Positions 1 through 61,627 of a stretch of DNA of 64,000 nucleotides are shown here, piece after piece. Origin of the DNA: Gammaproteobacteria bacterium (GTDB lineage: Bacteria; Pseudomonadota; Gammaproteobacteria; GCA-002705445; GCA-002716945); contig PBCF01000002.1 of the NCBI GenBank assembly GCA_002716945.1, positions 286,481 to 350,480 of the forward strand, read 5' to 3'. A model generated the notes under the pieces. That model was not told where the DNA came from, made no database searches, and worked only from the letters and a program-made list of their open reading frames with translations. Position numbers and translations under genes: made by a program. Positions within the stretch are counted from its first letter, which is position 1. Every line of letters starts with the position of its first letter.

Positions 1-332
1 TAGAAGATGTGGCTGATAATTTATTTAATCCTGATCCATATTTACAGCAAGGAGGAGATATGGTCAGAACAAAAGGTCTTAAATATACTATTACACCTCA
101 AGCAAAAGTTAATCACCGTATATCAGATTTAGCATTATCGAATGGGAATAAAATTGAATCAAACAAAACATACAAAGTAAGTGGATGGGCAAGTGTAAAT
201 CAAGAAGAATCAGGTAAACCAATTTGGGATATAACTAGTAAATATATACAAAATATTAAAAATTATGATATTAATACAAGTTTTGAACCAAAAATAAAAT
301 TAGAAAATGATAATATTGGAATAGAAACATAG
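1..332 (+). CDS. soxB: Thiosulfohydrolase SoxB, C-terminal part (5'-truncated by window edge)
   Basis: Frame is open from the window start and reads EDVADNLFNPDPYLQQGGDMVR...YKVSGWASV, the characteristic SoxB C-terminal motifs. Confidence 0.88.
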   Translation, partial: EDVADNLFNPDPYLQQGGDMVRTKGLKYTITPQAKVNHRISDLALSNGNKIESNKTYKVSGWASVNQEESGKPIWDITSKYIQNIKNYDINTSFEPKIKLENDNIGIET

Positions 333-18253: not shown

Positions 18254-19591
18254 ATGAAAATTACAGTAATTGGAATTGGATATGTTGGATTAGTTACAGG
18301 AACTTGCTTATCAGAGATAGGTCATAATGTTATTTGTCTAGATATAGATAAAAAAAAGATAGAAAAACTAAAAAAAGGTAAACTCTCGATCTATGAACAT
18401 GGCTTACAAGATTTAGTTGAATCAAATATAAAAGAAAAAAGATTAAAATTCACTTGTAGTTATGAAAAAGCTGTAAATCATTCTGATATTATATTTTTAG
18501 CAGTAGATACACCATCAGACAAAAATGGTGATACAGATTTAAAAAGTATTAAAAAATCTTGTATTGAAATATCTAAATATATGAATACATCGAAAATCAT
18601 AGTTGAAAAATCCACTGTACCTGTTGGAACAAATACATTATTAAAAAAAACCATTACAAACAATTTAAAGAAGCTAAACAAAGATATTTATTTCTCTATT
18701 GTCTCTAATCCAGAATTTTTAAAAGAAGGGAGTGCGGTTAATGATTTCATGAAACCAGATCGTATTATTATTGGAATTGATGATAATAACTTAAAACCTA
18801 TATTCGATGAGATATATTCTGCTTTCAATAGAAAATTTAATAAAATTCAATATATGGATGTAAACTCAGCAGAATTAACCAAATATGCTTCTAATGCAAT
18901 GTTAGCAACTAAAATAAGTTTTATTAATGAATTGGCAATAATTTCTGATAAATATGGAGTAGATATTGAAAATGTTAGAAAAGGAATGGGTGCTGATAAA
19001 CGAATTGGAACTGAGTTTTTATATCCAGGTTGTGGTTATGGGGGATCTTGTTTTCCTAAAGACATTAACTCATTGATTTACAGTGCTAAGAAAAAATCTT
19101 ACAATGCTTCATTATTAAAATCTGTAAATACTATTAATGAAAATCAAAAAAATTATTTGTTTCTTAAAATTAATAAATATTTTAATACGAACATCAAAAA
19201 TAAAGTTTTTACTATATGGGGGTTATCTTTTAAGCCAAACACAGATGATACTCGTTGTGCCCCCAGTCTTGCTATTATAAATTCTATTTTAAAAAATGGT
19301 GGAGTAGTTAAAGCCTACGATCCCGTTGCTACAATTATACCTACAATAAAAAATAAAAATTATACTGAATGCAATACAGCTACAAAAGCATTAAAAAACT
19401 CTGATGCTCTTGTAATATGTACCGAGTGGAAAGAATTTTGGTCTATTGATATTGATGTATTTAAAAGAAATATGAATGATGCTGTAATATTTGATGGTAG
19501 AAACATTTACAATCCAAAAAAGATGGAAAAACATAATATAACTTATTTCGGTGTAGGTCGAGGCAGAAGAATAGACTTGAATATACCTTGA
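18254..19591 (+). CDS. ugd: UDP-glucose 6-dehydrogenase
   Basis: GIGYVG, KSTVPVGT, NPEFLKEG, GYGGSCFPKD, FKPNTDD. Confidence 0.95.
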   Translation: MKITVIGIGYVGLVTGTCLSEIGHNVICLDIDKKKIEKLKKGKLSIYEHGLQDLVESNIKEKRLKFTCSYEKAVNHSDIIFLAVDTPSDKNGDTDLKSIKKSCIEISKYMNTSKIIVEKSTVPVGTNTLLKKTITNNLKKLNKDIYFSIVSNPEFLKEGSAVNDFMKPDRIIIGIDDNNLKPIFDEIYSAFNRKFNKIQYMDVNSAELTKYASNAMLATKISFINELAIISDKYGVDIENVRKGMGADKRIGTEFLYPGCGYGGSCFPKDINSLIYSAKKKSYNASLLKSVNTINENQKNYLFLKINKYFNTNIKNKVFTIWGLSFKPNTDDTRCAPSLAIINSILKNGGVVKAYDPVATIIPTIKNKNYTECNTATKALKNSDALVICTEWKEFWSIDIDVFKRNMNDAVIFDGRNIYNPKKMEKHNITYFGVGRGRRIDLNIP

Positions 19592-19616
19592 TATTTCAGT
19601 AATTATTATATATTCT
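19588..19616 (+). promoter_or_regulatory. Putative sigma70 promoter of rfaH
   Basis: TTGATA-N17-TATTCT directly before palindrome copy 1; other -10 choices are possible in this AT-rich stretch. Confidence 0.45.
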
Positions 19617-19637
19617 TATGTTCATGGGGTGAACATA
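19617..19637. promoter_or_regulatory. Palindromic operator-like site, copy 1 (TATGTTCA-N5-TGAACATA)
   Basis: TATGTTCA TGGGG TGAACATA; the spacer holds the rfaH RBS and the last base is the A of the rfaH ATG. Confidence 0.7.
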
Positions 19638-20131
19638 TGTGGATAGTGGCTAAAACCAAGCCGAAGCAAGAAAATAAGGCAGAAAAAAACCTTATGAATC
19701 AAGGATATAAGACATACCTGCCACTTCTTGAAATAAAAAAATTTATTAATAATAAGTGGATTATGCAAAAAGAAGTATTATTTGCTAGCTATATATTCAT
19801 TGATCTAGAAAATACAAGCAAACTACATAAAATTAACTATACATATGGTATTTCTAGACTCTTAATTAGCGCAGAATCTGGGGCTCCATATCTTATAAAT
19901 CCTACCATTATTAATCAAATTCGTACCAACTTAAACCTATATAATCCTTTAAATATCAATAGTTTAAAAAAAGGTGATAATGTTGTTGTAACTAAAGGTA
20001 AATTGTCATCATTAAAAGGAATATTTTTAGAAAAATGTAGCAAATATAGATCTAAGTTATTACTGCAATTCCTTAATAATCAACGAATTGTTGTTGTTGA
20101 TAGTCAATATTTACAACGATTATATGCATAA
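19637..20131 (+). CDS. rfaH: Transcription/translation elongation factor RfaH (NusG paralog)
   Basis: W...TKPKQE.KA..NL..QG..YLP, LF.SYIF, GISRL, C-terminal KOW (GDNVVVTKG); ops element lies just downstream. Confidence 0.88.
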   Translation: MWIVAKTKPKQENKAEKNLMNQGYKTYLPLLEIKKFINNKWIMQKEVLFASYIFIDLENTSKLHKINYTYGISRLLISAESGAPYLINPTIINQIRTNLNLYNPLNINSLKKGDNVVVTKGKLSSLKGIFLEKCSKYRSKLLLQFLNNQRIVVVDSQYLQRLYA

Positions 20132-20146
20132 TTTCTAGTATATTTC

Positions 20147-20175
20147 TTGCTTATCTTCAATTATTAACTTAAAAT
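20147..20175 (+). promoter_or_regulatory. Putative sigma70 promoter of the glycan operon
   Basis: TTGCTT-N17-TAAAAT upstream of palindrome copy 2 and ops. Confidence 0.6.
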
Positions 20176-20176
20176 C

Positions 20177-20199
20177 ATATGTTCAACGCATGAACATAT
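20177..20199. promoter_or_regulatory. Palindromic operator-like site, copy 2 (ATATGTTCA-N5-TGAACATAT)
   Basis: Perfect 9-bp inverted repeat with spacer ACGCA; same arms as copy 1. Confidence 0.72.
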
Positions 20200-20209
20200 A
20201 AATCCTGCC

Positions 20210-20221
20210 GGCGGTAGCGTT
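20210..20221 (+). promoter_or_regulatory. ops element (RfaH loading site, JUMPstart core)
   Basis: GGCGGTAGCGTT, a GC-rich island in an AT-rich leader, matching the ops core GGCGGTAG; ends 15 bp before the first operon ATG. Confidence 0.9.
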
Positions 20222-20236
20222 GTAAATCAAAAATAA

Positions 20237-21166
20237 ATGTCTGAAATAAGCATTGTAATACCTTTTTATAATGAGTCTGATTCTATTACTAAAACATTAG
20301 ACTCATTGAACAAACAAACTTATCAGCCTGATGAAGTGATATTAGTTGATTCGGGATCGGATGATAATACGTGTAATCTTATAAATAAATGGATTGAAGA
20401 TAATCAGACTAATAAGTTTAAAATTATTTATTCAGGGAAGATGTCACCAAGCTCGTCAATTAATCTTGGAGTAAGAAATGCCAAAAATAATTTAATTGGA
20501 TATTTAGATTGTGGTTTGTTCGTTCCAAATAATTGGATTGAATCAAACGTCAAAATTATAAAACAATCCAATTGCGATATGGTTTCGGTAATGATATATA
20601 CAAAAGGTCAAAATTATATAGATAAATCATTAGTAGCTCAATCATATGGTTATAAAAACAAAACAGCATGTTTAACGGGTTCTATAATTAAAAAAAGTAT
20701 TATAAAAAAATTAAATTATTTTTTAGAAAATTGTCGGGCTAGTTATGATATTGATTTTATAAATAAATTCAAAAAAAATAATTATACAAGAGAAGTAAAC
20801 ACAAAAATAATATTAAACTATTATGATATAAATTTTTCATCAAATTACCATGAAGCAATACAAAAAGTTTTCAGGTATTCTAAAAATGCTTGGTTAGCTT
20901 ATGGAGATCTAAAACCAATAAGTTATATTTTATTGACAGTATTTATTATTATTATCCCTTATAACTATTACTATAATATAATCTTATTTTATTTTATTTT
21001 ACGTGGTTATATAACTCCATATTTAAAGTCAAAAAATTTAGAATTATTTAAAGAAATACCATTATTAGCCTTACTTCCTTTATCTGGATTTATTTTTGAT
21101 ATAAGCAGACTCGCAGGATATATATATTCATTACCATCTAGTATTATAAATGACAAACAAAATTAA
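20237..21166 (+). CDS. Glycosyltransferase family 2
   Basis: ISIVIPFYNE, VDSGSDD, NLGV..A, YLDCG; hydrophobic C-terminus. Confidence 0.85.
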   Translation: MSEISIVIPFYNESDSITKTLDSLNKQTYQPDEVILVDSGSDDNTCNLINKWIEDNQTNKFKIIYSGKMSPSSSINLGVRNAKNNLIGYLDCGLFVPNNWIESNVKIIKQSNCDMVSVMIYTKGQNYIDKSLVAQSYGYKNKTACLTGSIIKKSIIKKLNYFLENCRASYDIDFINKFKKNNYTREVNTKIILNYYDINFSSNYHEAIQKVFRYSKNAWLAYGDLKPISYILLTVFIIIIPYNYYYNIILFYFILRGYITPYLKSKNLELFKEIPLLALLPLSGFIFDISRLAGYIYSLPSSIINDKQN

Positions 21167-21842
21167 AAAAATTTTATTATATATTAATGATAAATTTAGA
21201 ACACTTTTTATCTCCTTTCTTAGTGATAAAAATAAGTTTAAATTTATTTATAAAAATAAATATTGGCAAAATATTGAAAATGGCTCTTTATCTGGTTCTG
21301 GTTCAAATGAAGATACAACTAAAAATCTAATTAAAGAATTATCTACATTTGTTAAAGATAAAGAAATTAAAACGATTTTAGATATTCCGTGTGGTGATTG
21401 GAGATGGATATCAAAAATAAATTTAGACGGCAAAAGATATATTGGGGCTGACATTGTGCCAGACTTAATTACAGAAAACACAAAAAAATATACAAATGAT
21501 AATGTTAAATTTAAATGTTTAGATTTAAAGACAGACATTTTACCTAATAGCGATCTTATCATAGTCAGAGATCTTCTGTTTCATTTAACCATCCAAGATA
21601 TAGAAAAATGCTTAAAAAATATTTTTAAACATAATTTTAAATTTATTGCTATAACAAACCATAATACAGATTTATCTAATCAAAACACTTATGTAGGTGA
21701 TAGATGGAGACCGATTAATTTATTAAAATCTCCATTTAACTTACCCGAACCTAACTATAAATTATCTGATTATAGTACTAATAACCCACATGATATAAAT
21801 AAAGTTTTAGCTATATGGGATAAAGATAGTTTTACTTTTTAA
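21150..21842 (+). CDS. Class I SAM-dependent methyltransferase (glycan-locus type)
   Basis: SGSGS, ILDIPCGD, GADIV, RDLLFHL, WRPINL..PF. Confidence 0.75.
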   Translation: MTNKIKKILLYINDKFRTLFISFLSDKNKFKFIYKNKYWQNIENGSLSGSGSNEDTTKNLIKELSTFVKDKEIKTILDIPCGDWRWISKINLDGKRYIGADIVPDLITENTKKYTNDNVKFKCLDLKTDILPNSDLIIVRDLLFHLTIQDIEKCLKNIFKHNFKFIAITNHNTDLSNQNTYVGDRWRPINLLKSPFNLPEPNYKLSDYSTNNPHDINKVLAIWDKDSFTF

Positions 21843-21846
21843 AATT

Positions 21847-22197
21847 ATGACAGATAACAACAAAAATAATGATAAAGATTTAGAAGTATTAAGGTACCTC
21901 GAAAATCAAGAAAAGATCAGTCAAAGAGAATTATCGGCTAATTTAGGTATAAGCCTAGGTAAAGTAAATTTTATTTTAAAAGCACTTGTAGAAAAAGGAA
22001 ATGTAAAAGCCAGAAATTTTATAAATAACAAAAACAAAAGAGCGTACGCTTACTATTTGACACCCAAAGGAATTGAAGAAAAAACAAGACTGACTATAAA
22101 TTTTTTCAAAAGAAAGATGCAAGAATATGATGATATAAAAAAAGAATTAAAACAATTAGAAGATGAAATAAATAAAAATAAAAAAGAAAATGAATAA
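21847..22197 (+). CDS. MarR-family EPS-associated transcriptional regulator
   Basis: SQRELSANLGISLGKVNFILKAL..KG, NKRAYAYYLTPKGIEEK signature. Confidence 0.92.
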   Translation: MTDNNKNNDKDLEVLRYLENQEKISQRELSANLGISLGKVNFILKALVEKGNVKARNFINNKNKRAYAYYLTPKGIEEKTRLTINFFKRKMQEYDDIKKELKQLEDEINKNKKENE

Positions 22198-23353
22198 TAT
22201 TTTATTTGAAAAACTAGTTAAAGATATTAAATCTTGTTCTTGCCATAATAAAAAGGATTATTATGTACACGAACCAATTGGAATGCAAAATTGCAAAAAA
22301 GATGTAATAGACTGTATTCAATCAACATATGTATCTACATCGGGAAAGTATTTAGATAAATTTAAAAATGAAATAAAAAAATTAACAAAATCTAATTATG
22401 TTGTTCTTACAAATACAGGAACATCTGCGCTATTTATGTCTTTAAAAATGATAGATATAAAAAATACAGAAATATTAATACCTTCAATGACATTTGTGAC
22501 AACTACAAATGTCGTTAAATACTTAGATGGTATTCCTCATTTTATAGATTGTGAAAAAAAATATCCAACCATAGATCTTATGAAACTTAAAAATTATTTA
22601 TCTGACCATTGTTATATGAAAAGTAAAAAATGTATTAACAAAAAAACTAATAAACATATAAAAGGACTTATTGCTGTACATGCCTTTGGGTATCCAGTTG
22701 ATATTCCTAATCTAAAAAAATTATGCTCTAAATATAATATAGAAATTATTGAGGATGGAGCAGGAGCTTTAGGTAGCTATATTAATAATAAACATATCGG
22801 TACTTTTAACAATTTTGGAATATTAAGTTTTAATGGTAATAAAATTGTAACGACAGGAATGGGTGGAGCTATCCTTATAAAATACAAAAAAGATTATTTA
22901 AAAATTAATCATTTAATAAATGTTGCTAAAAAACCACATGATTGGAAACTTGAACATAATGACATTGGTTACAATTTTAAAATGTCAAATATAAATGCAT
23001 CATTAGGATATCGGCAATTAAAAAATATTAAAAAAACTTTAAAAAGAAAAAGAAATCTCCACAATACTTATCTAAAGAAATTTATTAAATATAAATTTCT
23101 AGATATAATGGTTAAAAATAATGGAAGTGATCCAAATTATTGGTTAAATAATTTAATCATTAATAAACGTGATATAAACATACAAACCTTAATCAAAAAA
23201 CTTCATAAAAATAGAATTTATGTCAGAGAATTATGGAAACCTCAACATTTACTTCCTATGTTTAAAAACTATCCCAAAATGAATTTATCTAATTCAATTA
23301 ATTTATGGAAAACTACAATCAGTCTACCGAGTAGCTACATTGAAAAAAACTAA
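22190..23353 (+). CDS. LegC-type DegT/DnrJ PLP aminotransferase
   Basis: VHEP, GTSAL, EDGAGALGS, SFNGNKIVTTGMGG, GYNFKMSNINA, SLPSS. Confidence 0.85.
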   Translation: MNNILFEKLVKDIKSCSCHNKKDYYVHEPIGMQNCKKDVIDCIQSTYVSTSGKYLDKFKNEIKKLTKSNYVVLTNTGTSALFMSLKMIDIKNTEILIPSMTFVTTTNVVKYLDGIPHFIDCEKKYPTIDLMKLKNYLSDHCYMKSKKCINKKTNKHIKGLIAVHAFGYPVDIPNLKKLCSKYNIEIIEDGAGALGSYINNKHIGTFNNFGILSFNGNKIVTTGMGGAILIKYKKDYLKINHLINVAKKPHDWKLEHNDIGYNFKMSNINASLGYRQLKNIKKTLKRKRNLHNTYLKKFIKYKFLDIMVKNNGSDPNYWLNNLIINKRDINIQTLIKKLHKNRIYVRELWKPQHLLPMFKNYPKMNLSNSINLWKTTISLPSSYIEKN

Positions 23354-24506
23354 ACGTAAAATTTGTGTTATCACATCTAGCAGAGCTGATTATAGTCATC
23401 TCTACCCATTAATGTTGGGATTGAAAAAGTCCAAATTACTGACTCTTCAGATTATTGCAACAGGAATGCATCTTCTTAAAAACTATGGATATACTTATAA
23501 AGATATTTCGAATGATGGTTTCACTATTAATCAAAAAGTTAATACTAACCAAAAGAATACATCATCAACGAGTATAATTAAATCCATGTCGGTAGAATTA
23601 ACTGGAATAGAAAAGGCGCTTAAAAGACTGAAACCAGACTTAATTGTTATTTTGGGGGATAGGTATGATATTTTTCCAGCGGCAATAGTGGCACATATTA
23701 AACAAATACCTATTTGTCATATTCATGGAGGAGAGGTAACTTCAGGTTCAATTGATGATAGCGTAAGACATTGTTTAACAAAAATATCACATATTCATTT
23801 AGTAGCATCTGAAATATTTAAAAAAAGAGTTATTCAATTAGGTGAAGATAAAAACAATGTATTTAATGTAGGTAGTTTGGGTATCCATTCTATCTTGTCG
23901 CTACCTAAATTAGCCAAAGTAAATGTATATAAATATTTCAATATCAAATTTAACAAAGATTATTTAGTTATTTCTATTCATCCCGAGACTATTAATGAAA
24001 AAAATTTGCTTATGATTAAAAATTTACTCGAAGTATTAAAAAATGATAATAATTATAATTACATTTTTACATCTCCAAATTCAGATACAGGTGCAAATCT
24101 TATAGATCAAGAAATTAGAAAATTTGTTAAAAAAAACAAACATACCTCTTTGTATATCAAGTCGGCTGGTAGAACAATGTTTATTAATTTGTTAAGATTT
24201 TCTAAAGGTATAATAGGTAATTCATCTTCAGGACTCATAGAAGCGCCAGCACTGAATATACCTTCTATAAATATTGGTAATAGACAGAAAGGAAGACCAT
24301 TGTCTTCTACTGTGGATGACATATCATACTCTAAAAAAGAAATAGATTATGCTATAAAAAAGTTAAAACTTTATAAGAAACAAAATAGTCAAGAGATACA
24401 TTATCAAAATAAAAAACCAATAAATAAGATTTTAAAAATATTTAACAATTTTAATTCTAAAAAAATTTTAAATAAGAAATTTGTTGATAATTTTATTTCA
24501 TTATGA
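23340..24506 (+). CDS. neuC: Hydrolysing NDP-diacetamido-sugar 2-epimerase (NeuC/LegG)
   Basis: TSSRADY, GMHL, LGDRYD, HIHGGE, GNSSSG, GNRQKGR. Confidence 0.92.
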   Translation: MKKTKRKICVITSSRADYSHLYPLMLGLKKSKLLTLQIIATGMHLLKNYGYTYKDISNDGFTINQKVNTNQKNTSSTSIIKSMSVELTGIEKALKRLKPDLIVILGDRYDIFPAAIVAHIKQIPICHIHGGEVTSGSIDDSVRHCLTKISHIHLVASEIFKKRVIQLGEDKNNVFNVGSLGIHSILSLPKLAKVNVYKYFNIKFNKDYLVISIHPETINEKNLLMIKNLLEVLKNDNNYNYIFTSPNSDTGANLIDQEIRKFVKKNKHTSLYIKSAGRTMFINLLRFSKGIIGNSSSGLIEAPALNIPSINIGNRQKGRPLSSTVDDISYSKKEIDYAIKKLKLYKKQNSQEIHYQNKKPINKILKIFNNFNSKKILNKKFVDNFISL

Positions 24507-25597
24507 GAGCACATAAAACATATATAATTGCTGAAATTGGTGTAAACCATAATGGAAGTATCAAGATTGCTAAAAATCTAATTCAGGAAGCAAAAAAATT
24601 AGGTGCCAATGCAGTAAAATTTCAAAAATTTATACCTAATTTAATGATTTTAGATAACACTAAAAAAACTAGTTATCAAAATAAGTCAACTAAAACAAAA
24701 GAATCACAAAAAGTAATGCTCAATCGTTATGTTTTGTCCGATAAAGATTATATTAATTTGCAAAAAACATGCAAAAAAAATAATATTGATTTTTTATGCA
24801 CACCATTTGATGATGAAAGTCTATATTTTTTATTAAAAAAATTAAAACTAAAAATAATTAAAATTTCTTCAACTGATTTGACAAATATTCCATTTTTAAT
24901 AAAAATTGCACAAAGTAATGTCCAAGTATATTTATCAACAGGTATGTCAAATATTGAAGAAGTAGATATTGCTTTATCTGCATTAGTCCATGGTTATAAA
25001 AAATTTAAAACTAAATTTAATCCTAAATTACATAAAAACATTTTTAAAAAATATACTAAAATTCTTTCGAAAAAAGTTACTTTAATGCACTGCACATCTC
25101 AATATCCTGCACCTACAAACGAGTTAAATTTAAATATACTAGATATGTATAAGTCAAGATATAGTATACCAATAGGCTATTCTGATCATTCTAAAAATTT
25201 TTTGACTCCCATAATTGCAGTAGCAAAAAATATTGATATTATTGAAGTACATATTACAATGAGTAATAAACTTACTGGACCAGATCATAAAAGTTCATTG
25301 AATATTAAAGACTTTAAAAAATATATAAATTTAATCAAGAAATCAGAAATTATATTAGGCCATTCAAATAAAACAGTTACTTCTTCTGAAATTAATGTTA
25401 GAAAATATGCCAGAAAAAGTTTAACAACTACTTGTTCAATTAAAAAAGGAGAGATAATTAAAGAAAAACATTTTTCTGTCAAGAGACCTGGTTATGGTAT
25501 TTCTCCAATTCATTATTATCAATATATTGGTAAAAAAATTATGGATGATTTAAGTGAAAACAAAATTTTAGTAAAAGAACATTTTGAAAAAAAATAA
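24503..25597 (+). CDS. neuB: Nonulosonate synthase (NeuB/LegI), copy 1
   Basis: IAEIGVNHNG, STGM, HCTSQYP, GYSDH, GPDH, C-terminal SAF domain KRPGYGISP. Confidence 0.92.
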   Translation: MRAHKTYIIAEIGVNHNGSIKIAKNLIQEAKKLGANAVKFQKFIPNLMILDNTKKTSYQNKSTKTKESQKVMLNRYVLSDKDYINLQKTCKKNNIDFLCTPFDDESLYFLLKKLKLKIIKISSTDLTNIPFLIKIAQSNVQVYLSTGMSNIEEVDIALSALVHGYKKFKTKFNPKLHKNIFKKYTKILSKKVTLMHCTSQYPAPTNELNLNILDMYKSRYSIPIGYSDHSKNFLTPIIAVAKNIDIIEVHITMSNKLTGPDHKSSLNIKDFKKYINLIKKSEIILGHSNKTVTSSEINVRKYARKSLTTTCSIKKGEIIKEKHFSVKRPGYGISPIHYYQYIGKKIMDDLSENKILVKEHFEKK

Positions 25598-26387
25598 TCT
25601 AATAACAAAGCTTACTGGTAAAGTAACTTGTGTTACCGGAGCATCAGGCTATATAGGTAAGGTAATTGCAGAAACATTATGTCAATTAGATTCAAATCTA
25701 ATATTAGTTGATATAAATTCTAAAAATCTTAACAAATTAAAACTAGATCTTAGTAAAAGATATCACGTTCAAATAGATACATTGTGCATGGATCTTACAA
25801 AGAAAAATAATATACACAAGCTTAAATCTTTTATTATGACCAAATATAAACATTTACATATTTTAATAAACTCACTAGGATTTGTTGGAAGTAATAAATT
25901 AAAAGGTTGGTCGGTTGATTACGATAAACAAACAGAACATGGATGGAATAAAGCTATTGAAGTAAACTTAACATCTGTTTTTTTTCTAATACAATCTTTA
26001 CATAAAATAATGAAAAAAACTAAGAATGCATCAATTATAAATATTTCATCTATTTATGGTTCTCATGCGCCAGATTATGATATTTATTCAAATACGAATA
26101 TAAAAAATCCTGCTGGCTATGCTATTAGTAAAGCAGGATTAAATCATTTAACTAAATGGTTAGCGGTAACACTATCGCCTGAAATAAGAGTTAATACTAT
26201 TTCACCAGGTGGCATTTTTAGAAAACAAGATCCTGTATTTGTAAAAAAATATATTAAAAAAACACCTCTCAATAGAATGGGAACTGAAAGTGATATCGTA
26301 GGAGCAATAATTTTACTATCAACAGATATGTCTTTATACATAACTGGTCAAAATATTGTCGTTGATGGGGGATGGACTCTTAAATAA
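25584..26387 (+). CDS. SDR oxidoreductase (PtmA-like)
   Basis: TGASGYIG, SSIYG, YAISK, RVNTISPGG, VDGGW. Confidence 0.85.
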   Translation: MKKNNLITKLTGKVTCVTGASGYIGKVIAETLCQLDSNLILVDINSKNLNKLKLDLSKRYHVQIDTLCMDLTKKNNIHKLKSFIMTKYKHLHILINSLGFVGSNKLKGWSVDYDKQTEHGWNKAIEVNLTSVFFLIQSLHKIMKKTKNASIINISSIYGSHAPDYDIYSNTNIKNPAGYAISKAGLNHLTKWLAVTLSPEIRVNTISPGGIFRKQDPVFVKKYIKKTPLNRMGTESDIVGAIILLSTDMSLYITGQNIVVDGGWTLK

Positions 26388-26458
26388 TATAATATGAATT
26401 TCAATATTACAAATTCATGTATAATAGAAAAATATATAATTGATGAAGATAATATATT

Positions 26459-27481
26459 GTGATTGATAATAAAATTCAAATAGGTCCTATTGACACCATC
26501 TTTTTATTAGGAGGAGGAAAGATTGTTTCTGAATTAATTCAGAGAATAAATGATGATATGTCAAAAACGATTAAAGTCATATCATCTCCTAGACATTTAA
26601 AAGAGATTCATAATGATCAGAGTTTTGCTGATTTTTTGAGTAAAAAAAACATCAATTATCTATCAATAGAATCAATGAATGATTCCAAGCTTAAAAATTT
26701 TATTAAACATAATGATAATAATTTTTATTTATCTATAGGTGCTGCTTGGATTTTTAAAAAACAACATATTGATGGACTATTTCATAATAAATTATTAAAT
26801 TTACACAGCACACGATTACCACAAAATAGAGGCGGTGGCGGATTTAGTTGGCAAATACTAACTAAAAATAGATTTGGATTTTGTACAATTCATATGGTAG
26901 ATGAAGGTATCGATACCGGTGATATAGTTTTTTGTAATGAATTCCTTTATCCCGCTCATTGCAGAATACCTAGTGATTATGAGAAATTTTATATTCCTAA
27001 TAATGTTAATAGCATAATGAAGTTTATTTCATTGCATGAAAAAAAAAGTAACACTATTAAACTTATTAAACAAACAGAGTATTTTTCAAGTTATTGGCCT
27101 AGATTAAATACTGATTTAAATAGCTGGATAGATTGGTCTATAGATTATAATCATTTAGAAACATTTATTTGTGCATTTGATGACCCATACCTTGGTGCTA
27201 AAACATACTTAAATCATAAACCTGTTTATCTAAAAAAATGTATGGTTAATAATCAGGATGGTATTTTTCATAGTTATCAAAGTGGAATAATTTACAGAAA
27301 AACTGATAAATGGTTATGTGTTTCAGCCAATGGCGGAGGAATTATTATAGAAGAGGTTACAAATGAAAAAGGGGAAAGTATCTTAGAAGATATTGTTGTA
27401 GGAGATAGGTTTGTTACTCCTCATGAAAAAATTAATGAATCAAAATTAAGAGTTAAATATACTTCAACCGGTATAAAGTAG
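26459..27481 (+). CDS. Formyltransferase-family protein (putative sugar N-formyltransferase)
   Basis: LLNLHSTRLP, RGGGG, IHMVDEGIDTGDI (N-H-D triad positions), FDDPYLGA. Confidence 0.82.
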   Translation: MIDNKIQIGPIDTIFLLGGGKIVSELIQRINDDMSKTIKVISSPRHLKEIHNDQSFADFLSKKNINYLSIESMNDSKLKNFIKHNDNNFYLSIGAAWIFKKQHIDGLFHNKLLNLHSTRLPQNRGGGGFSWQILTKNRFGFCTIHMVDEGIDTGDIVFCNEFLYPAHCRIPSDYEKFYIPNNVNSIMKFISLHEKKSNTIKLIKQTEYFSSYWPRLNTDLNSWIDWSIDYNHLETFICAFDDPYLGAKTYLNHKPVYLKKCMVNNQDGIFHSYQSGIIYRKTDKWLCVSANGGGIIIEEVTNEKGESILEDIVVGDRFVTPHEKINESKLRVKYTSTGIK

Positions 27482-27625
27482 ATAAAATATTTAATAAATC
27501 CAATAAAAAAAATTATTTTAAATCATAACATCCTATCAATTTCATTTATAACAGGAAATCATCCTAATAATAAAATATTAGAAAACAAGGATGATGTAAT
27601 TAATATCTATTTTAGATAAAGTTGT

Positions 27626-28663
27626 ATGAAAATTATTAATAAAATATCTAATTATCTTGTTGATAAAAAAACTAAAATCAGTTCAGTAATAGAATTACTA
27701 CAAAATAATCCTATAAAATTAATTATTGTAGTCTCTAAGAAGAATCAACTAGAAGGAAGTATTACAGATGGTGATGTTAGAAGAGGTTTGCTTAATGGAA
27801 TAGATATAAATTGCAACTGTGAAAATATAATGAATGCTAAGCCTCGTAGTGTTATTAATAATGATTTTAAAAAAATTGATAAGTTATTTAATGAATATAA
27901 AATTAAACATCCAATTATCATAAATGAAAAAAATCAAGTAACAGGTATTGTTGTTAAAAAAGATTACACAAAAATAGAATCACGTTCAAACTATATTGTA
28001 ATTATGGCAGGTGGTGAAGGGAAACGTTTATTACCGTTAACACTTGAAACACCAAAACCACTTCTAAATATAAATAATAGACCAATTATTGATACTATTA
28101 TTAGTAGATTTATTAAATATAATTTTAACAATATGTTTATCTCATTAAGATATAAATCAGAAAAATTTATTAAATATTTTTCTGATAATAAAAAATATAA
28201 TGCAAATATCAAATTCTTAATAGAAAAGAAACCATTAGGTACCGCAGGTTGTCTATCTCTGTTAAATACTAAAGATATTATTGAACCAGTTATTGTCATA
28301 AACGGTGATGTTTTATCAGAAATTAATTTCAATCAATTGATAGACTTTCATCTCAAAAACAAAAAAGCTATAACTTTGTGCGTATCTGAGTATATTAATA
28401 CAATTCCTTTTGGCATTATTAAATTAAATAAAGGAAAAATATCTGAGATACATGAAAAACCAAATAATAAATATTTAATAAATGCAGGTATTTATGTAAT
28501 TAACCCTGAAGTAATAATAAAAATGAAAAAAAATATAAAAATTGATATGACAGACTTAATTGATACTTACATAGAAAAAAAATTAGTTTCTGTATTTCCT
28601 ATACATGAACAATGGACGGATATAGGAACCAAAGATGATTATAGCAAGGCAAATAAAAAATAG
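27626..28663 (+). CDS. CBS-domain nucleotidyltransferase (PtmE-like)
   Basis: N-terminal CBS pair (ITDGDVRRGLL), MAGGEGKRL.PLT..PKP, PLGTAG, NGD, WTDIG. Confidence 0.88.
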   Translation: MKIINKISNYLVDKKTKISSVIELLQNNPIKLIIVVSKKNQLEGSITDGDVRRGLLNGIDINCNCENIMNAKPRSVINNDFKKIDKLFNEYKIKHPIIINEKNQVTGIVVKKDYTKIESRSNYIVIMAGGEGKRLLPLTLETPKPLLNINNRPIIDTIISRFIKYNFNNMFISLRYKSEKFIKYFSDNKKYNANIKFLIEKKPLGTAGCLSLLNTKDIIEPVIVINGDVLSEINFNQLIDFHLKNKKAITLCVSEYINTIPFGIIKLNKGKISEIHEKPNNKYLINAGIYVINPEVIIKMKKNIKIDMTDLIDTYIEKKLVSVFPIHEQWTDIGTKDDYSKANKK

Positions 28664-29398
28664 ATGTATAAAGACAAATCTATAATAGCAATTATACCCG
28701 CAAGATCTGGTAGTGTTGGATTAAAAAATAAAAATATTCTGAAATTAAAAGATAAACCTTTAGTTTCGTGGCCAATTATGGCTGCAAAAAAATCAGCTTA
28801 TATAGATTCAATTATAGTTAGTACTGATTCAAAAAAGATTGCTAAAATAGCAAAAAAACATGGAATTGATATACCATTCTTAAGACCAAAAAAACTTTCT
28901 GGAAATAAAGCAACTACAATTGAAGTAATAGATCATGTTATTAAGTATTTAAATAACGAATCTATAAGTTGTGATTATATTATAGTTTTAGAACCTACAT
29001 CTCCATTTACAAATTCTAATGATATTGATAAATGCATAGAGAACTTATATAAGAAGAGAAATAGTTTTGATTCACTGGTAGGTGTTTGTAGAAACGATAA
29101 ATATCATCCAAATTTTAGTTTGTATACTGATAAAAATAATAAAGTAAAGAATATACAATCATCATTATCCAAGCATACTCGTAGACAAGATTGTACAGAA
29201 ATTTTATATCCAGATGGTTCAATCTATATAACTACTAAATCATCGTTTATTAAAAATAAAACTTTTTATCATTCAAGAACGTTAGGTTATAAATTTCCAA
29301 AATGGAAATCAATAGAGATAGATGATGAAATAGATTTTATAACTGCTCAAAAACTTGCAACTAAGATAAAATATTTAGAAAAAAAATATAATGAATAA
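28664..29398 (+). CDS. neuA: CMP-nonulosonate synthetase (NeuA/LegF), copy 1
   Basis: IPARSGSVGLKNKN, VSTDS, LRP..L, LEPTSP, RRQD, EIDDE.D. Confidence 0.9.
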   Translation: MYKDKSIIAIIPARSGSVGLKNKNILKLKDKPLVSWPIMAAKKSAYIDSIIVSTDSKKIAKIAKKHGIDIPFLRPKKLSGNKATTIEVIDHVIKYLNNESISCDYIIVLEPTSPFTNSNDIDKCIENLYKKRNSFDSLVGVCRNDKYHPNFSLYTDKNNKVKNIQSSLSKHTRRQDCTEILYPDGSIYITTKSSFIKNKTFYHSRTLGYKFPKWKSIEIDDEIDFITAQKLATKIKYLEKKYNE

Positions 29399-30698
29399 AA
29401 TTAATTTACAAAAACTGTTATCTAATGCAAAAAAGATCATTCCTGGAGGAAATCAACTAATATCTAAAAGAAGCGAAATGTTCTTACCTGGATTATGGCC
29501 TAATTTTTATAAAAAAGCTAAAGGATGTTCGATTTGGGATTTAAATAATAATCATTACTATGATTTTTGTGGTATGGGAGTTACAAGTTGTGTTTTAGGT
29601 TATTCAGATAATGAAATTAATCAACAAATAGTCAAAGCTATAAAAAATGGTTCTATGTCCACATTAAACTCTTACGAAGAATATGAATTAGCTAAAAAAC
29701 TAATTAATATTCATCCATGGAGTTCGATGGTTAAATTTACTAGATCTGGAGGTGAAGCATGTTCAGTAGCAATACGAATTGCTAGAGCATATTCCGGAAA
29801 AGATAAAATTGCTATTTGTGGCTATCACGGTTGGCATGATTGGTATTTATCTTTAAATCTGAAAAATAAAAATAATTTAGATAAACAACTACTACCAGGT
29901 TTGAAAACTATTGGAGTTCCAAAGTCTTTGTCAAAAACAACAGTTCCATTTTCTTTTAATGATAAAAAATCATTTGACAAGATAATTAATAAAAAGATAG
30001 GTGTAATTATAATGGAACCTATGAGAGACAAATTACCAGATTTAGATTTTTTAAGACATGTTCGCTCAACAGCTAAAAAGATAAATGCAGTACTTATATT
30101 TGATGAAATAACATCAGGATTCCATGATAATTATGGTGGCATTCATTTAAAATTTGGAATTAATCCAGATATTGTAATTTTTGGCAAAGCATTAGGTAAT
30201 GGGCATCCTATATCAGCAATTGTCGGTAAAAAAAACATAATGAATAGATCCCAAGATACATTTATTAGTTCTACAATGTGGACAGAAAGAGTTGGCTTTG
30301 TTGCTGGTATTGCAACATTAAATAAAATGAAAAAAATTAATGTTCAAATAAAAAATATAAATAAAGGTAATTATTTAAGAATGAAATTATATAAAGTAGC
30401 AAAAAAATATAATATTAATATATCAATTTGCGGACTTGAATCGATACCAATATTGAAGTTTTTACATAAAGATTCAGATAGATTAATGACATATTATACC
30501 CAAGAAATGTTAAAAGTAGGTTACTTAGCTGGATCACAAATAGTTATGTCTTCATCACATACACAATCTATAATTAATCAATATATTAAAGCTGCAGATG
30601 AAGTATTTAAAAGTATATCCAAATATATAAGCAGTAATAAAAAAGTTCCACTTAAAGGGGCTGTTAAACATAACACTTTTAAGAGATTGACAACGTAA
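29391..30698 (+). CDS. Class III (GSA-aminomutase-like) PLP aminotransferase
   Basis: SGGEA, YHGWHDW, FDEITSGF, FGKALGNG, ISST. Confidence 0.88.
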   Translation: MNKINLQKLLSNAKKIIPGGNQLISKRSEMFLPGLWPNFYKKAKGCSIWDLNNNHYYDFCGMGVTSCVLGYSDNEINQQIVKAIKNGSMSTLNSYEEYELAKKLINIHPWSSMVKFTRSGGEACSVAIRIARAYSGKDKIAICGYHGWHDWYLSLNLKNKNNLDKQLLPGLKTIGVPKSLSKTTVPFSFNDKKSFDKIINKKIGVIIMEPMRDKLPDLDFLRHVRSTAKKINAVLIFDEITSGFHDNYGGIHLKFGINPDIVIFGKALGNGHPISAIVGKKNIMNRSQDTFISSTMWTERVGFVAGIATLNKMKKINVQIKNINKGNYLRMKLYKVAKKYNINISICGLESIPILKFLHKDSDRLMTYYTQEMLKVGYLAGSQIVMSSSHTQSIINQYIKAADEVFKSISKYISSNKKVPLKGAVKHNTFKRLTT

Positions 30699-30737
30699 TT
30701 GTTTGTATATACTATATTTTACTATCAATAATTTAAA

Positions 30738-31781
30738 ATGACACAAGATATTAATTTAACAAATTTTATTAATACACTTAAAGAAAAAAAAAGAGTTGCA
30801 CAAATTATTGTCGTAGCATCTTTAGTTCTTTCTATAATTTATTCACTAACAGCTCAAAAATTATATAAGTCTAGTATATACGTTATACCCCCACAATCTA
30901 AATATGTAAATATGCTTAACGTATTCGATGATGATGGCAAATTACTTATAAACAGAGAAATTCGAGTAAAAGATGTTTATAAAGTATTTGTATTAAATGC
31001 ACAATCACGAAAACATCAAAGAAACTTTTTTTTTAAAAATGAATTGTATAAACATTTTAGTGAATCTAATCAAGAAATATCATTTGAAGAAAATTTTCAC
31101 AAAAAATTAAAGTTTGTTATAGACTCTGGTGTTATGTCAAGAGAAATCAGAGATGAACAGTTCTTAACAATTTCTTTTATACATACAGACCCTAAAATAG
31201 CAGCAAAGTGGTTAAATGAATATGTAGATATGTCAAATAAATTAACTTCAAAAGAATTGGCTGATAGTATTAATGAGTTAATTCAAAACACTAAAAATCA
31301 ACTAGTTGGACAAGCTTTGAGTAAAAGAAATTTAGCTAAAAAAACTATGGAAGACAGAATTATTCAACTAGAAGAAGCATTAAAGATAGCAAATCAATTA
31401 AATATCACAGAAAGATCAAGTGCAAGCTCTAATCAACAAAGTGTAATTTTATCTGATGGAGAGAATTTGGTTGCTGAAGATCCTTTATATTTAATTGGCT
31501 CAAAAGCACTTATGGTTGAAATTGATGCAATAAAGAATAGAAAATCTGCAGAATCTTTTATACCAGGATTAAGAAGAATTGAACAAAGAATTCAATCGCT
31601 TGATTCTATTATTGTAGATGGAAATTTAATAAAATCAGCTGAAATTGATCAGAAAGCTATAGCACCATCAAATAGATTTGCGCCTAAAAGAAAACTGATT
31701 GTTTTGTTGGGTACTAGTTTCGGTGTTTTCTTAGCATTCATATATCTTTTAATTTCAGCTTTTATATCAAGAAAAATATAA
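30738..31781 (+). CDS. wzz: Chain-length determinant Wzz
   Basis: N-terminal TM, coiled-coil periplasmic region (RIIQLEEALKIA), PKRKLIVLLG C-terminal TM. Confidence 0.88.
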   Translation: MTQDINLTNFINTLKEKKRVAQIIVVASLVLSIIYSLTAQKLYKSSIYVIPPQSKYVNMLNVFDDDGKLLINREIRVKDVYKVFVLNAQSRKHQRNFFFKNELYKHFSESNQEISFEENFHKKLKFVIDSGVMSREIRDEQFLTISFIHTDPKIAAKWLNEYVDMSNKLTSKELADSINELIQNTKNQLVGQALSKRNLAKKTMEDRIIQLEEALKIANQLNITERSSASSNQQSVILSDGENLVAEDPLYLIGSKALMVEIDAIKNRKSAESFIPGLRRIEQRIQSLDSIIVDGNLIKSAEIDQKAIAPSNRFAPKRKLIVLLGTSFGVFLAFIYLLISAFISRKI

Positions 31782-31826
31782 TTCTTTCATTTTTATCATA
31801 TCTGAAATTTATTCATTAATTAATAA

Positions 31827-33623
31827 ATGAATTACAAAAATATTCATATAAATAGAATTTTTAAAATTCTAGATAATAAAGATCAAATATATTTAATATT
31901 TATTTTTGTTCTAGCATTTTTATCAGGACTATTAGAAATAGCAGGTATTGCGTCTATAATCCCTTTCATAGGTATAATTTCAGATCCTCAATATCTTGAT
32001 AATAAAGAATATTTAACAAATATTACAAACTACCTAGGCTATGATTATAATGATGCAAGAATATTTTTTGGTGTGCTGAGTATCGTATTATTTATTTCAA
32101 TAAACCTATACAATATATTTTATAATTGGAAAACAGTTATGTTTACTGCATATTTAGAATCCAAGATGTCTGCAATTGTATTAAAGAAATATCTTGATCA
32201 ATCTTATAGCTTTTTTGTTAATTCTAATCCATCAGTATTAATGAAAAATGTATTAGATGAATCTTCACAGCTCTGTACTGGCTTTATATATCCATATATT
32301 GAGATCATTGCTAGAATAATGATATTAACACTAATTTCAATACTACTTATTAATGTAAATTATAAATTATTCATTGGGTCAACATTATTAATCTCAATTA
32401 TTTATTTATTAATTTATAGATTTTTAAAGAATACAATGAGCGATTATGGTAAAAAGAAAATAATTCTAAATAGTTTAAGGTTTAAAACAGTAAAAGAAGT
32501 TTTTGATAATTTAAAAGATGTAAAATTTTATTCTATTGAAGACTATTATACTAAAATGTTTTCAAAATCAGCTAGTGATTTTTCTCTTAATGCAGGACGT
32601 GCAGCTATTTATCAAACAATACCCAGGTATATTATAGAAATAATTCTATTTGGTGGTATTTTCTTATCAATTATTTATTTACTATCTACTAATAGTACTT
32701 TGGTTTCATATTTACCTACCATCAGCGTCTTTATATTAGCAGCATATAGATCAATCCCTATGTTACAAAACATATTTGTTAATCTTACTAACGTAAAACT
32801 CAATTATCCAGTTTTAAAAATTGTAGAAGATGCAATCAATCTTGATCAGAAAAAACCAATAATTAATAAAACTATGCCTTTATTACAGGACTCTATAAGA
32901 TTTGAGAATATTACTTTTGGTTATAAGGATAATAATAATATTATTGATTCATTATCTTTTAAAATACAAAAAGGTGAAATGACTTCAATTATAGGTACTA
33001 CCGGAATTGGTAAAACTACTTTGATTGATATTTTTTTAGGATTTTATAATCAAAAAAATGGGTACATTAAGATTGATGATAACATTGTAACAGATGAAAA
33101 TAGAGCAAATATGCTTAAATCTATAGGTTATGTATCACAAACAACATCTTTGCAACAAAAGAGTATAGTTGAAAATATTGCTGTAGGAATTGATGCTAAA
33201 TACATTGACTATGATCGCATTAAAAAAGTATCAAGAATAGTTGAATTAGATGAACTCATAAAACAGTTAGATGATAGTTATGAAACTGATATTGGAGAAA
33301 AAGGAGTAAAAATTAGTGGCGGTCAAAGACAGAAAATTGGAATAGCACGAGCACTTTATTTACAACCTTCAATTCTTATATTAGATGAATCAACCAACGC
33401 TCTTGATACAGTTAGTGAAAGTAGAATTATTAAAAATATTAAAAAATTTAATAAAGATATAACAATTATTATGATTACACATAGGATATCTGCATTAAAA
33501 TTATCTGATACAATACTTATGCTAAAAAATAATAAAATGTTTAATTTAAAACTCTCTAATAAGAAAAATTTAAATAAAATTGATAGAATTATTAATGACT
33601 ATGACGAGAGAAATAAATGTTAA
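31827..33623 (+). CDS. ABC transporter TMD-NBD fusion (PglK/Wzk-like glycan flippase)
   Basis: TM domain, then Walker A GTTGIGKT, signature ISGGQRQ, Walker B ILDEST, THR. Confidence 0.85.
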   Translation: MNYKNIHINRIFKILDNKDQIYLIFIFVLAFLSGLLEIAGIASIIPFIGIISDPQYLDNKEYLTNITNYLGYDYNDARIFFGVLSIVLFISINLYNIFYNWKTVMFTAYLESKMSAIVLKKYLDQSYSFFVNSNPSVLMKNVLDESSQLCTGFIYPYIEIIARIMILTLISILLINVNYKLFIGSTLLISIIYLLIYRFLKNTMSDYGKKKIILNSLRFKTVKEVFDNLKDVKFYSIEDYYTKMFSKSASDFSLNAGRAAIYQTIPRYIIEIILFGGIFLSIIYLLSTNSTLVSYLPTISVFILAAYRSIPMLQNIFVNLTNVKLNYPVLKIVEDAINLDQKKPIINKTMPLLQDSIRFENITFGYKDNNNIIDSLSFKIQKGEMTSIIGTTGIGKTTLIDIFLGFYNQKNGYIKIDDNIVTDENRANMLKSIGYVSQTTSLQQKSIVENIAVGIDAKYIDYDRIKKVSRIVELDELIKQLDDSYETDIGEKGVKISGGQRQKIGIARALYLQPSILILDESTNALDTVSESRIIKNIKKFNKDITIIMITHRISALKLSDTILMLKNNKMFNLKLSNKKNLNKIDRIINDYDERNKC

Positions 33624-34630
33624 CTAAAAATCTAAAAAATAAAAATATTTTAATAACTGGCGCCGATGGTTTTATTGGATCACACTTAACTGAAGCATTA
33701 TTTAAATTTAATTGTAATCTTAGAGTTATGACAATGTACAACTCATTTAATACATGGGGTTGGTTAGATACAATCGATAAGAAAGTTTTAAAAAATATAG
33801 AAGTTATATCTGGAGATATACGAGATAAAAAGTTTGTTAATAATGCATGTAAAAATATTGATTATATTTTTCATTTAGCATCATTAATCGCAATTCCACA
33901 TTCATATAATTCACCATATGCATATTTAGAAACTAATGCATTAGGAACACTAAATTTAGTTGAATCAAGTTTAGAAAATAATATTAAAAAAATAATACAC
34001 ACATCAACAAGTGAAGTATATGGAGAGTCATCTAAAATTCCAATAAATGAGTCAGAATTAATCAAAGCGAAATCTCCTTATTCAGCAATGAAAATAGCTG
34101 CTGATCAAATAGCCTATTCTTATTTTAGTACTTATAATTTACCTGTAACTATTCTTCGCCCATTCAATACATTTGGCCCTAGACAATCATGTAGAGCTAT
34201 AATACCTACAATAATTACACAATTATTAAATACAAAAAATAAAATTAAATTAGGATCATTATATCCTACAAGAGATTTTTTATATGTAACTGACACAGTA
34301 GACGGATTTATCAAAAGTTTGTTATCAGAAAAAAATATAGGTGAAATTATTAATATTGGCTCAGGATATGAAATTTCTATTGGTAATTTAGTACAAATGA
34401 TTCAAAAGATTATGAAAACTAAATTTTTAGTTACCACTGATAAGGATAGAATTCGACCTAAACCTGGAGAAGTGTTTAGATTAAAAGCAGATATTAAGAA
34501 AGCTAAAAAACTATTAAACTGGAAACCAAAATACACAGGGAAAGATGGTCTCCAAAAATCATTGTTAATTACTATTAAATGGTTTAAAGATAACAAACAT
34601 TTATATAAGGATGATTTATATAATCAATAG
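33617..34630 (+). CDS. NDP-GlcNAc 4,6-dehydratase (LegB-like)
   Basis: TGADGFIGSHL, YNSFNTWGWLD, LIAIPHSY, STSEVYG, YSAMK, RPFNTFGPRQS. Confidence 0.88.
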   Translation: MLTKNLKNKNILITGADGFIGSHLTEALFKFNCNLRVMTMYNSFNTWGWLDTIDKKVLKNIEVISGDIRDKKFVNNACKNIDYIFHLASLIAIPHSYNSPYAYLETNALGTLNLVESSLENNIKKIIHTSTSEVYGESSKIPINESELIKAKSPYSAMKIAADQIAYSYFSTYNLPVTILRPFNTFGPRQSCRAIIPTIITQLLNTKNKIKLGSLYPTRDFLYVTDTVDGFIKSLLSEKNIGEIINIGSGYEISIGNLVQMIQKIMKTKFLVTTDKDRIRPKPGEVFRLKADIKKAKKLLNWKPKYTGKDGLQKSLLITIKWFKDNKHLYKDDLYNQ

Positions 34631-34635
34631 GAAGT

Positions 34636-37009: not shown

Positions 37010-37062
37010 ATTATTACACTATAGATAATAATAAAATATGATTTAGATAATTAAAGAGACTA

Positions 37063-38994: not shown

Positions 38995-39003
38995 AATATA
39001 TTA

Positions 39004-40671: not shown

Positions 40672-40677
40672 AAATAA

Positions 40678-41370: not shown

Positions 41371-41385
41371 ATTTTAAGATATAAG

Positions 41386-42123: not shown

Positions 42124-42143
42124 TAAAATATTTAGAAAAATTA

Positions 42144-45327: not shown

Positions 45328-45336
45328 TAAAATTCA

Positions 45337-47494: not shown

Positions 47495-47495
47495 A

Positions 47496-48455: not shown

Positions 48456-48459
48456 TTTT

Positions 48460-55702: not shown

Positions 55703-55723
55703 AAATTATATACTCAAAATCAT

Positions 55724-56455: not shown

Positions 56456-56458
56456 TTA

Positions 56459-57172: not shown

Positions 57173-57173
57173 T

Positions 57174-60737: not shown

Positions 60738-60773
60738 ATACTATTTTATCTCTAATGGTTTATAATATAAATA

Positions 60774-61604: not shown

Positions 61605-61627
61605 TTTAATTAAAAAATATCTAAATT

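Follow-up and report, generated by a model that had tools for sequence, protein, structure and literature searches.

Two palindromes flank an rfaH-like gene at the head of a long surface-glycan operon in the window, the whole 64,000-nucleotide stretch analysed here. We put the probability at about 75% that they are operators of the MarR_EPS regulator (TIGR04176) encoded by the third gene of that operon, which would occlude both transcription starts, regulate its own synthesis and gate the supply of the RfaH-like protein. That one regulator controls both rfaH and the operon behind the ops element appears well supported. The preliminary description of this DNA had proposed that the MarR/EPS regulator represses both rfaH and its own operon, and its assignment of the sites has stood up to comparison across genomes. 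Of 110 loci outside the window's family, 104 have an exact site upstream of the regulator gene; these loci are mutually related, and the counts overstate their independence, though many families and several phyla are represented. The 5-nt spacing between half-sites is strict, the site is found at 14 of 15 RfaH loci that carry such a regulator against 0 of 15 that do not, and the window genome has a single gene (short form) of this type for its two sites. Binding of the protein, its dimeric state, repression as opposed to activation, and the two-tier switch behaviour are, as they were in that description, what we infer.

The palindromes, their promoters and the two proteins

The elements on which the argument turns are as follows, in window coordinates.

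19588..19616, + strand: putative sigma-70-type promoter P1 of the rfaH-like gene, TTGATA-17 nt-TATTCT (promoter scan, 9 of 12)
19617..19637, no strand: putative operator 1, TATGTTCA-TGGGG-TGAACATA (sequence reading, and pattern search of window and genome)
19637..20131, + strand: RfaH-like NusG paralogue, 164 amino acids (aa) (Pfam, NCBIfam and PDB sequence search)
20147..20175, + strand: putative promoter P2 of the ops operon, TTGCTT-17 nt-TAAAAT (read from the sequence)
20177..20199, no strand: putative operator 2, ATATGTTCA-ACGCA-TGAACATAT, core 20181-20195
20210..20221, + strand: ops-like element GGCGGTAGCGTT, ending 16 nt before the first operon gene
21847..22197, + strand: MarR_EPS regulator, 116 aa, third operon gene and proposed binder of both operators (TIGR04176)

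Both palindromes lie exactly where the preliminary description had placed them, and the difference between their spacers, TGGGG and ACGCA, was also described correctly. The core of operator 1 spans 19620-19634 (GTTCA at 19620-19624, TGAAC at 19630-19634). Its spacer holds a Shine-Dalgarno-like GGGG at 19626-19629, and its final base is the A of the rfaH-like ATG (19637); the earlier observation that this copy covers the ribosome-binding site and first base of rfaH is thus accurate. Operator 2 ends 10 nt 5' of the ops-like element, again as described, and 37 nt 5' of the first gene of the array. When the 16 specified bases were searched for with up to two mismatches, the only matches in the window were these two palindromes, compared with a mean of 0.16 matches in shuffled windows, of which 2 in 100 reached two. 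The exact 14-base pattern ATGTTCA-N5-TGAACAT occurs nowhere else in the whole 1,089,911-base genome, and its two one-mismatch matches both fall inside open reading frames (ORFs). The 10-base core GTTCA-N5-TGAAC likewise occurs twice in the genome, at the window palindromes, with other spacings found 0-2 times each. On the evidence of this one genome a chance origin is only moderately unlikely; it is the comparative data across loci, presented below, that make chance untenable.

The hexamers quoted in the preliminary description are present and end directly before each palindrome, at 19588-19593 (TTGATA) and 19611-19616 (TATTCT) for P1, and at 20147-20152 (TTGCTT) and 20170-20175 (TAAAAT) for P2, so that the operator cores begin 3 and 5 nt after a -35/-10 pair. 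The nearest relative has TTGATA-17-TAAAAT at the place of P2.

With 139.7 bits against the TIGR04176 cut-off of 88, the regulator belongs to the MarR_EPS family, and as the third gene of a co-directional glycan array it is encoded within a surface-glycan cluster. The cut-offs of the Pfam MarR models are both missed (PF01047 MarR, 22.2 against 24.6; PF12802 MarR_2, 22.6 against 27), and HTH_24 is the sole Pfam model passed (44.8 against 21.9). By these profile scores we regard the protein as a winged-helix relative, not a clear canonical MarR. Members of the family are about 105-130 aa long and consist of a winged helix followed by a C-terminal amphipathic helix whose hydrophobic residues recur every 3-4 positions; across the helix-turn-helix and wing the residues R27, G34, S36, G38, G51, K54, F58, K64, Y67, T72 and G75 are invariant. 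It is plausible that the C-terminal helix forms a coiled-coil dimer contact, and the proposal that the protein acts as a dimer would rest on this heptad-like pattern together with the symmetry of the site. No close solved structure was found by sequence, the best PDB profile matches being LrpA (4e-7) and a MarR-family chain (2e-4), and a search of the ESM Atlas with the short form gave MarR_EPS-named clusters only.

The RfaH-like protein passes the Pfam NusG NGN domain model (PF02357, 51.8 bits against a cut-off of 22.2), and its best NCBIfam NusG-paralogue model is that of RfaH (TIGR01955, 103.3 bits). Its best PDB sequence match is E. coli RfaH (E 1.7e-11), to which the phmmer alignment extends over residues 2-149. 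The last base of the window's GGCGGTAGCGTT differs from the GGCGGTAGCGTG of most related loci. Its shorter form GCGGTAGC has five matches in the genome, of which only the window element and one at C1:49379 carry the GG prefix; the latter lies about 40 nt after an ATG, in apparent coding sequence.

Distribution of the site among regulator and RfaH loci

In a sample of 400 genomes of the class, MarR_EPS genes were detected (E <= 1e-20) in 49. From these, 30 loci were fetched, representing 25 families with G+C contents of 37-71%, and GTTC-N7-GAAC was present in 29 of them, mostly 10-70 nt before the gene start and often right behind a -35/-10 pair. A further 80 loci were taken from named genome records by searching with an alignment of MarR_EPS proteins. 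Judged by record title, their taxa include Lysobacterales, Marinobacter, betaproteobacteria, six Leptospira species, other Spirochaetota, Acidobacteriota, Nitrospina, Thermodesulfatator and Krumholzibacteriia, amongst others. Within the 472 kb of these 80 loci the exact core GTTCA-N5-TGAAC occurs 82 times, whereas each other spacer tried (0-4 and 6-12 nt), like the reversed order TGAAC-Nk-GTTCA, is found 0-2 times. The half-sites are therefore held at a fixed spacing, as expected of a dimer operator, with 4-nt spacers in two genomes of the window's family as the exceptions.

When the two sets are pooled, the nearest exact site upstream of the regulator gene lies within 60 nt at 38 loci, at 61-150 nt at 29, at 151-400 nt at 15, at 401-1000 nt at 16 and further away at 6. 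Three of the six loci without an exact upstream site have one with a single mismatch. Upstream sequence totalling 266 kb contains 110 sites, as against 2 in 303 kb downstream. The logo of 108 unique sites reads T-n-Y-GTTCA-A-y-n-r-T-TGAAC-R-n-A, in which the core is invariant by construction of the search. Conserved arms, a free spacer and linkage to the regulator gene are thus all found, as they should be for an operator.

The site is also associated with ops. Amongst the 110 short-form loci, ops lies within 150 nt downstream of the site in 29, and there are 49 cases in which it follows the site within 900 nt. The extended consensus of these, GGCGGTAGCGTGCC, indicates that they are real ops elements and not chance 7-mers. 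A composite of the site followed at 13-73 nt by GGCGGTAG was found in 8 of 401 class genomes, with 3 hits for a control pattern, and seven of the eight genomes are MarR_EPS-positive, against a prevalence of 49 in 400. In one of the composite genomes (G139:C44:12274-12341, locus L159) the composite is on a contig other than that of the regulator gene, and in another genome (G214) two further identical sites (C1:3795084 and 3797332) lie 9-11 kb from marR_EPS. Such extra sites are possible additional targets in trans. Three loci from records titled Nitrospina, Thermodesulfatator and Krumholzibacteriia (L146, L124 and L095) have an ops-like GGCGGTAG or GCGGTAGC after the site, and no rfaH-like gene was found within 3 kb of them using the window's protein as query. 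These may reflect the use of ops outside the Proteobacteria or loose labelling of metagenome-assembled genomes.

Of the 80 named loci, 27 have an rfaH-like gene no further than 3 kb from marR_EPS. The commonest layout beside the short form is site, rfaH, ops, marR_EPS (10 of the 27), with the site 40-170 nt upstream of rfaH. The order rfaH, site, ops, marR_EPS is seen in seven loci with rfaH close by and in two more with rfaH further off, and site, marR_EPS, rfaH, ops in four; the remainder are irregular or lack an exact site.

RfaH loci were used as a control for the association. RfaH (TIGR01955, E <= 1e-25) was detected in 79 of the 400 class genomes, comprising 24 of the 49 MarR_EPS-positive genomes and 55 of the other 351 by hand comparison of the lists. 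The 30 best of these RfaH loci were scanned over ±1.5 kb, and 14 contain the exact site. A MarR_EPS-type gene is adjacent in 15 of the 30, fourteen being of a long form and one of the short form, and the site is found at 14 of these 15, compared with 0 of the 15 loci lacking the gene. The site therefore follows the regulator and not rfaH. The long form, about 200 aa, matches TIGR04176 over its first 90 residues at 62-68 bits; this is below the cut-off of 88, so it was missed by the initial threshold and is counted in the 14 of 15 against 0 of 15 comparison. The long-form loci are:

L160:2021-2614: long-form regulator beside rfaH
L173:2037-2636: long-form regulator beside rfaH
L184:2068-2673: long-form regulator beside rfaH
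L161-L163, L168, L170, L172, L174, L175, L177, L178 and L181: further long-form RfaH loci (11)

In nine loci the site overlaps the start codon of the long form itself, its right arm providing the ATG and an Asn codon (Met-Asn), and the order is rfaH, site/regulator, ops. Four others run site, rfaH, regulator, ops, with 80-97 nt between the site and rfaH. The long form carries an unannotated C-terminal domain of about 110 aa, a candidate sensor; a search of the ESM Atlas with this part returned C2185-like_N and PglD_N on a minority of members, at scores of 0.77-0.84 that are below the meaningful level.

Within the window's family (37 genomes), rfaH-like genes are present in 17 genomes and MarR_EPS genes in 17, always at the same locus. 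One genus with 13 of the family genomes has neither an exact site nor a MarR_EPS gene, and rfaH was absent from all six of its genomes that were searched. A site directly precedes rfaH in 17 of 17 genomes (14 are exact, two differ at one core base and one has a spacer of 4 nt). In every case the spacer of this site is G-rich (nGGGG or GGGGn) and 6-12 nt before the start codon, and it therefore appears to double as the ribosome-binding site. A -35/-10 pair (TTGnnn-16..18-TAnnnT) ends 0-5 nt before the core at all 17 of these rfaH-proximal sites.

The second site is more variable. It lies between rfaH and ops in eight of the 17 genomes, the window's included, and in seven of these eight it likewise follows such a pair by 0-5 nt, the eighth sequence containing Ns. 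In five genomes it instead precedes the -35 of the rfaH promoter by about 9 nt, so that two sites enclose the promoter. No second site was seen in three genomes. In the remaining one (G051, L151:2904-2918) an exact site is found inside the rfaH coding sequence, with none between rfaH and ops. Two genomes have aberrant spacing: in G052 (L152:4113-4190) both sites upstream of rfaH have 4-nt spacers, and in G019 (L016, at about 1431) the second upstream site does so; other genomes of the same genus have 5. The constant feature of the family is thus the operator over the rfaH start. The twin sites flanking rfaH, which the preliminary description reported, are real in the window and are one of several layouts of the same module. 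The family by itself cannot tell which gene owns the site, because rfaH, marR_EPS and the site are physically linked there.

The Leptospira loci were recovered with the MarR_EPS alignment, and their MarR gene, which opens the rfb locus, belongs to the same family. Five of the six loci have the core 138-350 nt upstream of this gene; in the other it lies about 1.2 kb upstream. L083, L085, L086, L134 and L112 share an invariant stretch of about 25 nt that includes CCCGGCGAAGCT and is found about 55 nt beyond the site, between the site and the MarR gene.

Proposed mechanism and competing explanations

The mechanism that we favour runs as follows. The recognised core would be GTTCA-N5-TGAAC, whose half-site centres are 10 bp, or about one helical turn, apart, and a symmetric dimer would contact successive major grooves on one face of the helix. 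With the operator cores 3-5 nt after the -10 hexamer, the sites would cover the expected transcription starts, and it is for this reason that we suppose the starts to be blocked: bound regulator would prevent initiation at both P1, for the rfaH-like gene, and P2, for the ops operon. Repression as the sign of the effect is likewise suggested by site position. Because the regulator would be made from P2 as the third gene, it would be subject to negative autoregulation, and the same protein would limit the supply of the RfaH-like antiterminator acting at ops, which follows operator 2 after 10 nt. Once the regulator was released, initiation and processivity would rise in concert, and their effects on the distal genes of this array, which exceeds 40 kb, would multiply. 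As the antiterminator gene shares an operator with its target operon in several lineages, initiation would be coupled to the control of elongation.

Several observations weigh against this account. P2 was not called by the promoter scan, its -35 matching at only 3 of 6 positions, and the number of promoters called in the AT-rich region of the window is not above that in shuffled sequence. Outside the family, a strict promoter definition finds a promoter at just 15 of 108 sites. In five Leptospira loci the site is about 10 nt upstream of a conserved TTGACA, and does not follow a -10 hexamer; the sign of regulation may differ between lineages. The 4-nt spacers in two family genomes are unexpected for a rigid dimer. 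Whole-genome counts of the 10-base core do not separate carriers of the regulator (15 sites in five genomes) from non-carriers (11 in five), the core occurring 1-5 times per 3 Mb genome in either case; the tie to the regulator therefore rests on the position of the sites. One genome, G032, has the operator-then-ops composite with no MarR_EPS match at E <= 1e-20, on a contig that ends exactly at ops. To these may be added the relatedness of the 110 loci mentioned above.

The antitermination half of the model appears less secure than the preliminary description had assumed. The ops-like element that it reported is present. The RfaH-like protein, on the other hand, is divergent: at 103.3 bits it falls under the TIGR01955 cut-off of 144.5 and so outside the RfaH family as defined by that model. 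The side chains given as contacting ops in E. coli RfaH are K10, H20, R23 and R73 (PMC5995543). According to the phmmer alignment, which is of low identity and makes the positions tentative, K10 is kept as K and the other three are changed (H20 to N, R23 to N and R73 to Y); these differences, too, count against the model. The ops-like element is retained in spite of them.

The alternative that survives best, although we think it unlikely, is that the same regulator acts at the same sites as an activator, as a counter-silencer of the AT-rich glycan locus, or in a dual role dependent on position. Some MarR-family proteins, for example SlyA and RovA, act as counter-silencers. Both the second site that five family genomes have about 9 nt before the -35 and the five Leptospira sites before TTGACA are in positions typical of activators. 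In contrast, the commonest position, 0-5 nt after the -10, is hard to square with activation; it is seen at 24 family sites. Outside the family, of the 25 promoters called near sites under the strict definition, 17 end -2 to 9 nt ahead of the core. Autorepression is also suggested by those sites that overlap the start codon of the regulator itself.

A much less probable explanation is that some other protein travelling with these loci binds the palindrome, and that MarR_EPS binds elsewhere. The composite of G032 would fit this idea, although the contig that carries it ends at ops. Across many phyla and G+C contents, the site goes with the regulator gene, often at that gene's own start, and the MarR_EPS-type gene is the only gene common to all the scanned loci. 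The absence of the site from all 15 RfaH loci without such a gene points the same way.

Least probable of all is that the palindromes function as RNA hairpins, either as 5' stabilisers or as a loop presenting the rfaH Shine-Dalgarno sequence, and not as DNA sites. Both can fold as RNA (-10.1 and -13.3 kcal/mol), and the G-run of the first copy would lie in the hairpin loop. The folds are nevertheless weak, with z-scores of -1.6 and -1.8 and 13 and 15 of 200 shuffled sequences folding as well. The arm sequence is fixed from Leptospira to Gammaproteobacteria, with no covariation, while the spacers vary. The base pair flanking the core (TA 34, CA 27, CG 22, TG 18) is close to independence, with 57 Watson-Crick combinations against 50.6 expected and C/A mismatches at 27 of 108 sites, and the strict 5-nt spacing is a protein-like constraint. 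In addition, as the -10 ends 0-5 nt before the core, the start would fall in the left arm or spacer, and the left arm would presumably be mostly untranscribed. Chance or a remnant of duplication was rejected, given that the two spacers are unlike, that the arms stay the same from phylum to phylum and that the sites are located at promoters.

Beyond the operator model itself, a broader generalisation seems to us doubtful, if attractive. It would make the palindrome the universal operator of a widespread winged-helix family comprising the short form and the long form of about 200 aa, which, with an RfaH-type antiterminator and ops, would form a portable cassette controlling long surface-glycan operons in several phyla; the head of the Leptospira rfb locus would be one instance. 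A single protein would set initiation and, through rfaH, processivity, and the additional domain of the long form would sense a nucleotide-sugar or pathway intermediate, giving end-product feedback.

Genomic context and comparison with known systems

The remaining features of the locus are:

20237..21842, + strand: first two operon genes, a family-2 glycosyltransferase (20237-21166) and a methyltransferase (21150-21842) (ORFs, Pfam)
22190..63448, + strand: rest of the co-directional surface-glycan array (ORF list; Pfam on ORFs up to 48455)

Every ORF of 120 aa or longer between 20237 and at least 63448, a span exceeding 43 kb, is on the same strand. The products include a DegT-type aminotransferase, a NeuC-like epimerase, NeuB, a cytidylyltransferase, Wzz, an ABC exporter, dehydratases and glycosyltransferases. 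The array makes up about 4% of the 1,089,911-base genome, which has a G+C content of 29%. On the 5' side, the neighbours of the rfaH-like gene encode a formate-tetrahydrofolate ligase, a protein of Wzy_C/O-antigen-ligase type and a UDP-glucose dehydrogenase.

Contigs of about 160-250 nt from a marine metatranscriptome study (two samples) match parts of 18570-21595 at 99-100% identity, so both samples contain this organism or a strain very close to it. The two runs contain about 11% of the words of 18300-22300. Two perfect contigs of about 160 nt (20183-20343 and 20188-20348) have their first base within operator 2, close to where the -10 would place the start, although such contigs cannot show start, strand or level, and an RNA library may include DNA.

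The MarR_EPS family has so far been named by gene neighbourhood only, and a 15-bp core at more than 100 loci makes it directly testable. The core predicts the control point of surface-glycan loci (O-antigen, capsule and exopolysaccharide) in many bacteria, including the Leptospira rfb locus, which determines serovar, and it bears on how the supply of an operon-specific antiterminator is controlled. If the proposal is correct, one regulator with two sites would govern about 4% of the chromosome in a streamlined marine genome of 1.09 Mb.

The E. coli MarR protein and its operator marO are the type case of an autoregulated MarR repressor with a palindromic operator over its promoter. The system described here resembles it in having a winged-helix protein, an inverted repeat over the promoter and start, and a regulator within the controlled operon. 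It differs in the size of the protein (about 105-130 aa), in its scores below the Pfam MarR gathering cut-off, in the core sequence GTTCA-N5-TGAAC and in that MarR_EPS seems to pair through a C-terminal amphipathic helix.

E. coli RfaH and ops provide the second parallel: there, too, a NusG paralogue is paired with a very long glycan operon whose leader contains an GGCGGTAG-type ops. E. coli RfaH is described as monocistronic, acting in trans and without common gene neighbours (PMC7593976), whereas the rfaH-like gene of the window adjoins its target and shares an operator with it. The window protein also differs in lying under the TIGR01955 cut-off and in keeping one of the four ops-contact side chains. 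In the Leptospira rfb locus, which the MarR gene is reported to open as a landmark (PMC10958091), the regulator family and the core are the same as in the window, but no ops or rfaH was seen in the Leptospira loci, and the site stands before TTGACA.

The UpxY/UpxZ system of Bacteroides fragilis, in which each glycan locus encodes a NusG-like antiterminator and a second regulator, and UpxZ interferes with expression of heterologous upx operons (PMC7593976), is similar in pairing a locus-encoded antiterminator with a second locus-encoded regulator. It differs in that UpxZ, as presented in the parts of that account available to us, is not a DNA-binding repressor of the antiterminator's promoter and no operator is involved. 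The association described here probably corresponds to RfaH cluster CL4 of Wang et al. 2020 (PMC7593976), although the text of that paper available to us gives no regulator family, site or regulatory logic for it. Our literature searches found no defined site, regulon or structure for the MarR_EPS family, in agreement with the preliminary description, which knew of no defined site. The kinds of component are already known, a winged-helix autoregulator on the one hand and antitermination by a NusG paralogue at ops on the other; what we regard as new are the operator motif, its linkage to both forms of the regulator across phyla, and the placing of rfaH behind the operator.

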